Part shown: positions 50,206 to 50,661 of the stretch, piece after piece | Layout: every line of letters begins with the position of its first letter | Position numbering within the stretch: position 1 is the stretch's first letter | From: a phage | Sequence record: PZ445440.1 | Reading direction: 5' to 3' (one strand) | Length of the DNA stretch: 64,000 nucleotides | The notes under the pieces: model-generated | The model's input: the letters and a program-made list of their open reading frames with translations, nothing else | What the model was told of the DNA's origin: nothing | Database searches by the model: none | Made by a program: the position numbers and the translations under genes

Positions 50206-50661
50206 TTATTTCAGATCTTCGGCCCAATCTAGTTTTAAGGGTTCTTTGTATTCACGGTCGAGAATAACCGGAATAGCTACATCACCACTGAATGATAGTT
50301 GGCCAACGTTATATGATAACGTTATATGTGGAGTGTAGTCGTCGAAATCATGAGTAGCACCTAAAGCTCGTGCATACTGATGACGACATCTAAGATATTC
50401 AGAATCAAGAACTAAAACCAGTACAGCGCCGTCATCGGTTTTCCATACCTCAAGGTGTCCTGATTTGGCAACAGAATAACTACCACTAGATGTAGTATAT
50501 GGTATGTTTACACGCGAATAACAAATTGTTGAATGAAGCTTTTCACGTGGTACTGGATTAGGAATTCTTAATTTGCGCTGGAGGTCTTCCAGCGCATCAA
50601 GTGTTAATTCCGAAAATTTAGCTGCGACGTAGAGGCCTTGTGAAAAGTCCTCAAATTTCAT
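50206..50661 (-). CDS. 57B: 2H phosphoesterase, gene 57B (Acb1-like cyclic-oligonucleotide nuclease)
   Basis: two HxT/S motifs (LHSTICYS and PHITLSY); position upstream of 57A. Confidence 0.75.

Follow-up and report, generated by a model that had tools for sequence, protein, structure and literature searches.

The closest described system is the product of T4 gene 57B, identified as Acb1 by Hobbs et al. 2022, which degrades CBASS signals, and whose deletion sensitises T4 to CBASS (PMC9117128). The T4 enzyme cleaves adenosine-containing cyclic di- and trinucleotides in a metal-independent manner and leaves cGG and cA4 uncleaved; nine of nine further homologues studied in the same work cleave 3'3'-cGAMP and cAAA (PMC9117128). 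Its overall fold is that of a compact 2H phosphoesterase. The catalytic tetrad is formed by H44/T46/H113/T115, and the H44A/H113A variant is catalytically dead. The bases of the ligand are stacked by Y12, W74, F107, and W147, the adenine N6 is contacted by E141, and residues 145-152 form a lid above the ligand (PMC9117128). The T4 ipI-57B pair has been read as an anti-defence locus (PMC9117128). T4 57B is dispensable on K-12 and is depleted from a transposon library under CBASS. Acb1 also breaks down 2'3'-c-di-AMP and cA3, which triggers the type I and type II Panoptes guard systems, and loss-of-function alleles of acb1 escape Panoptes, as described for a natural nonsense mutation in Bas43 and for selected escapers of Bas35.

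Within the genus Mosigvirus, gp156 of phage MM02 has already been named Acb1. MM02 has both Acb1 and Acb2, and Bas46-47 were plated and assayed as MM02-like phages (Doherty et al. 2025, PMC12657230). LigT / 2'-5' RNA ligase (PF13563), like other 2H enzymes, follows the same superfamily logic, with two H-x-T/S motifs, metal-independent catalysis, and a 2',3'-cyclic phosphate (PMC9117128). For the poxvirus cGAMP phosphodiesterases, the summary of Hobbs et al. (Cell) in PMC12064943 reports that they have the phosphoesterase fold and a lid over the substrate in common with Acb1, that their active-site residues align with those of Acb1, and that they are able to substitute for acb1 in a phage. By that published description, the poxvirus lid is N-terminal, whereas that of the protein studied here is C-terminal.

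The window, i.e. the whole stretch of 64,000 nucleotides of phage DNA that was analysed (record PZ445440.1), contains an orthologue of this gene. The acb1 (gene 57B) coding sequence is an ORF that fills exactly 50206-50661 from ATG to TAA, with 151 codons and the stop; it lies on the minus strand, which the original prediction had left unstated. The gene is 100% identical to bas46_0250 of Escherichia phage ChristianSchoenbein (Bas46 of the BASEL collection, MZ501056.1 146684-147139), a member of Straboviridae, Tevenvirinae, Mosigvirus. The 1.9-kb stretch around acb1 is likewise 100% identical to this phage and 97.9% identical to RB69, and the 7.9-kb locus at 46800-54700 of the window is 100% identical to the Bas46 record. 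In GenBank, bas46_0250 is annotated just as "hypothetical protein", its RefSeq relatives bear the label "RNA ligase", as does PHROG 755, and one Acinetobacter phage record names the homologue "putative RNA 2',3'-cyclic phosphodiesterase". Among the matches listed in the nucleotide and protein-match searches, the label "Acb1" is absent from the homologue records.

The protein aligns without gaps to T4 57B (NP_049750.1, taken as the translation of NC_000866 73952-74410) with 130 of 151 residues identical (86%, E 3e-103). The T4 enzyme has one additional N-terminal Met and is otherwise equal in length; the remaining differences are 21 mostly conservative substitutions. A sequence search of the PDB with phmmer finds the FBB1 Acb1 entries 7T26/7T27 (E 9.2e-59, residues 9-148), and BLASTP gives 63% identity across 141 aa to this crystallised enzyme of Erwinia phage FBB1. 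In Pfam, the protein matches PF23474 "Anti-CBASS protein Acb1" with 198.2 bits (cut-off 27), residues 8-149 covering profile positions 1-144 of 144. By these measures (E 9e-59 to the solved Acb1, 198 bits in Pfam) the match to Acb1 is far beyond chance at the sequence level. The PHROGs search returns phrog_755, labelled "RNA ligase", at E 1.9e-65. Scans of NCBIfam and PADLOC gave zero matches for the 57B protein; NCBIfam has no model for the Acb1 family, and the scope of PADLOC is defence rather than anti-defence proteins. The single-sequence AlphaFold2 model of the 151-aa protein is unusable (mean pLDDT 38, pTM 0.28), so the compact 2H phosphoesterase fold is assigned by homology to 7T26; at 63% identity to a crystal structure, the fold is taken as fixed.

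All residues to which a role has been assigned in T4 Acb1 are found in the window protein, whose numbering equals the T4 numbering minus one. The first catalytic motif, H43-S44-T45 (CAT TCA ACA, 50527..50535, minus strand), lies within KLHSTICYS and corresponds to T4 H44/T46, and the second, H112-I113-T114 (CAT ATA ACG, 50320..50328, minus strand), lies within TPHITLSYN and corresponds to T4 H113/T115. Residues 144-151 (LDWAEDLK, 50209..50232, minus strand) are the C-terminal lid, equivalent to Acb1 residues 145-152, and include the base-stacking W146; seven of the eight are identical to T4 LDWADDLK, with one D-to-E change. Altogether, T4 Y12, H44, T46, W74, F107, H113, T115, E141, and W147 are identical in nine of nine cases (Y11, H43, T45, W73, F106, H112, T114, E140, and W146), and none of the 21 substitutions falls on a published functional residue. 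The likeness to T4 thus covers the tetrad, the base-stacking aromatics, the adenine-reading Glu, and the lid Trp. FBB1 Acb1, the family's structural reference, shares the HxT/HxT motifs and the lid Trp with the window protein; at the W73 and F106 sites it has Phe and Tyr, which are aromatic replacements as judged from the alignment, and the window protein follows T4 at both. We also aligned nine homologues (the window protein, T4, FBB1, Acinetobacter phage Acj9, an Aeromonas Tulanevirus, Vibrio phages D482 and VmeM-32, Klebsiella phage PTP25, and a Krischvirus), with identity down to 26%; only twelve columns of the alignment are invariant, and H43, T45, H112, and T114 occupy four of them.

These results bear out the original prediction, which had read the gene as a 2H phosphoesterase of the Acb1 type from the strings HSTICYS and HITLSY. 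Both strings are present in the translation, with HST at residues 43-45 and HIT at 112-114, and the family assignment holds against T4, Pfam, and 7T26 alike. The enzyme named there as reported to degrade cyclic-oligonucleotide signals is indeed the Acb1 of Hobbs et al. 2022 (PMC9117128). An alignment to T4 Acb1 had been proposed as the check, with the loss of either catalytic His as the outcome that would speak against the reading; in the alignment both are kept, since H43 and H112 stand opposite T4 H44 and H113 and are invariant in the nine homologues.

The gene is also under constraint and widely distributed. Compared with T4, the coding sequence has only 74.6% nucleotide identity, below the 86% of the proteins, and the dN/dS of 0.057 (NG86) or 0.109 (LWL85) is a sign of strong purifying selection on acb1. 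With tblastn, the protein was matched in 1471 phage records, with at least 80% coverage in 1463 of them. With megablast, 155 of 155 matches are full length and belong to Mosigvirus-type records, mostly of Escherichia and Shigella phages.

The position of T4 57B, which we use as a supportive rather than defining criterion for Acb1, had been claimed for this gene and is confirmed: the order ipI-57B-57A-gene 1 (dNMP kinase)-gene 3-gene 2 is the same as in T4. Upstream lies the tail-fibre chaperone gene 57A (50661..50891, minus strand; Pfam GP57, E 2.4e-24), adjoined by gene 1 for dNMP kinase (50896-51630). Downstream lies ipI, coding for internal protein I, an anti-restriction protein (49841..50128, minus strand; Pfam IPI_T4, E 1.3e-50). 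The adjacency 57A-57B-gene 1 is kept in five of six distant phages (Acinetobacter, Aeromonas, Vibrio D482, Klebsiella, and Krischvirus; not VmeM-32). The TAA stop of 57A and the ATG of acb1 share one base (TAATG), with the sequence upstream reading ...GAAGAAGAATAATG, whereas the overlap in T4 is 4 nt. This overlap suggests co-transcription and translational coupling of 57A and acb1. A scan for sigma-70-like promoters around acb1 gave 9 sites against 8.5 expected from shuffled controls, and a scan for terminator-like sequences around the gene was at chance level; because of this, we make no transcription claim from these scans. One copy of the T4 late-promoter core TATAAATA lies upstream of acb1, inside gene 1 (51246-51253, minus strand), and the window shows no excess of this core, with 5 copies compared with 8.6 expected from shuffles.

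Hence, we suggest, with a probability of roughly 0.93, that in this ORF an RB69-like Mosigvirus has a functional acb1 (gene 57B), the product of which works like T4 Acb1. The orthology, the conservation of the published residues, the synteny, and the purifying selection are observed directly; activity, substrate range, expression, and the role in vivo are inferences. By analogy with T4, cyclic di- and trinucleotide signals with at least one adenosine (3'3'-cGAMP, cUA, cAAA, and similar) would be bound in a U-shaped pocket, with the bases stacked on Y11, W73, F106, and W146 and one adenine read by E140. The C-terminal lid would then shut over the ligand. The H43/T45/H112/T114 tetrad would carry out metal-independent acid-base cleavage 3' of adenosine via a 2',3'-cyclic phosphate intermediate. 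With the signal linearised, CBASS effectors would stay inactive and the phage would thus escape abortive infection. The same activity should expose the phage to Panoptes-type guards, which are fired by the loss of a decoy cyclic nucleotide.

A second anti-CBASS protein may be encoded 16 kb from acb1. The minus-strand ORF at 34240-34506 (88 aa, bas46_0211, annotated as hypothetical) matches the Acb2/Tad1 hairpin domain of Pfam (PF24729; E 6.5e-18, 65 bits, cut-off 27) and directly follows regB in the vs-gene region, the place of vs.4/Acb2 in T4. The phage thus seems to have two anti-CBASS proteins, one that degrades (Acb1) and one that sequesters (Acb2), and MM02, of the same genus, has both according to its published description. 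With Acb1 and an Acb2-type sponge together, Bas46 is therefore predicted to be CBASS-resistant and exposed to Panoptes-type guards, a prediction that helps to read the host-range data of this BASEL phage. In the same vs-gene region, the 120-aa minus-strand ORF at 34720-35082 matches the glycine-radical domain PF01228 (E 2e-18, over the C-terminal 42 residues of the profile) and on this sequence match is a small stand-alone glycyl-radical module.

The worth of the finding lies in the corrected annotation: the "hypothetical protein" bas46_0250, and the "RNA ligase" of its relatives, receive the experimentally grounded name Acb1. The anti-defence enzyme to which the gene is orthologous is well characterised, and for Mosigvirus the name is already in print. 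The annotation is correct but ordinary, and it raises no new question.

We considered whether the RB69 lineage has moved away from T4 Acb1. In its boldest form, the enzyme of this lineage would have a substrate spectrum other than that of T4 Acb1, for example by sparing the Panoptes decoy, or would have a second role in RNA-end processing next to the tRNA cluster, and the 21 substitutions would be adaptive rather than neutral drift. We regard this as improbable; the 57B sequence holds no pointers to an altered substrate spectrum or to a second RNA role. Also improbable is a drift in the substrate range or activity of this Acb1 orthologue, i.e. an enzyme weakened or re-specialised, for instance in avoidance of Panoptes, to which the T4 substrate list could not be transferred. 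Residues 56-66 and 76-80 of the beta-hairpin region account for several of the 21 substitutions, the Panoptes-escaping alleles of Bas43 and Bas35 demonstrate that T4-like BASEL phages can lose acb1 function, and an Acb2-type sponge in the same phage would provide some redundancy. However, the published catalytic and ligand-contact residues are free of substitutions, and the dN/dS of ~0.06-0.11 speaks of strong constraint. Moreover, the nine active homologues of Hobbs et al. argue that activity is stable across the family, and the FBB1 enzyme is active despite its 63% identity to the window protein, being more distant from it than T4 Acb1 (PMC9117128).

An enzyme that works like T4 Acb1 is also favoured over an RNA-directed 2H enzyme, a reading that we consider very unlikely. 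Here the protein would be a LigT-like 2'-5' RNA ligase or RNA 2',3'-cyclic phosphodiesterase acting in tRNA or RNA repair, and the cleavage of cyclic oligonucleotides would not be its main job. The database names given above, from PHROG 755, RefSeq, and the Acinetobacter record, point in this direction, as do the tRNA genes ~1.9 kb away and a weak match to Pfam PF13563 2_5_RNA_ligase2 (E 0.027). That LigT-type match, however, stays below threshold (14.9 bits, cut-off 27) and covers residues 76-131 only, compared with 198 bits over the full length for Acb1. The "RNA ligase" names stem from homology and not from experiment, and with the match itself below the cut-off, we reject this label. The sole experimental data on the orthologue concern the cleavage of cyclic di- and trinucleotides and an anti-CBASS phenotype, and the protein retains all the elements that grip a cyclic dinucleotide, namely Y, W, F, W, E, and the lid.

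The pair of H-x-[ST] motifs is insufficient as stand-alone evidence: two or more occur in 13.6% of shuffles of the 57B protein, and of the 95 window ORFs with a length of 100 aa or above, 10 have them as well. With two further requirements, namely the hydrophobic context typical of 2H enzymes and motifs 50-100 residues apart, 57B is the sole qualifying ORF in the window. The motif pair alone not being significant, the identification is decided by homology. Despite these motif frequencies, a chance feature in an unrelated or non-coding ORF is excluded by the full-length homology to characterised Acb1 in the PDB, Pfam, and T4 (E 9e-59 to E 3e-103), together with synteny and purifying selection.

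Several observations concern the wider family. A profile built from the nine Acb1 homologues matches, in the PDB, the Acb1 entries and the C-terminal region of one phage portal, and none of the other 2H enzymes in the PDB is significant with it (AKAP7-like, E 0.7). The portal region (Pam3 cyanophage, PDB 8hds_A, residues 498-616) gives E 1e-8 with this profile and E 0.051 with the single sequence; it could represent a fusion of a portal protein with an Acb1-like domain. The 57B homologue of Klebsiella phage PTP25 (L006 1459-2082) has 207 aa, with a C-terminal extension that runs ~55 residues past the Acb1 domain, unlike the other homologues. The homologue of Vibrio phage vB_VmeM-32 (L007 1495-1989) is the most distant of those inspected, with 26% identity, and keeps both HxT motifs. 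It is located away from 57A and gene 1, flanked by genes for a ribonucleotide reductase and for a protein like GIY-YIG homing endonucleases.

Other observations concern the neighbourhood of acb1 in the window. Between the tRNA genes and ipI there are four small minus-strand ORFs (48413-49800; 171, 96, 126, and 68 aa) with no Pfam match. They hold the position of T4 trna.2-trna.4, an anti-defence neighbourhood according to Hobbs et al. (PMC9117128). The tRNA genes here are only two (Arg-TCT and a tRNA with anticodon CAT), compared with eight in the corresponding region of T4. The CAT tRNA (48260-48333, minus strand) is called tRNA-Met by ARAGORN and tRNA-Ile (ATA) in GenBank, a conflict that would fit a lysidine-modified tRNA-Ile2. 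On the other side of acb1, the gap between gene 2 and gene 4 contains a 216-aa minus-strand ORF (53190-53840), annotated as a putative homing endonuclease, whereas in T4 the two genes abut with no ORF in between. Its Pfam matches are weak (SegE GIY-YIG, 21 bits, cut-off 25; NUMOD3, 20.7 bits, cut-off 20.4), and a mobile insertion specific to this lineage is the probable explanation.
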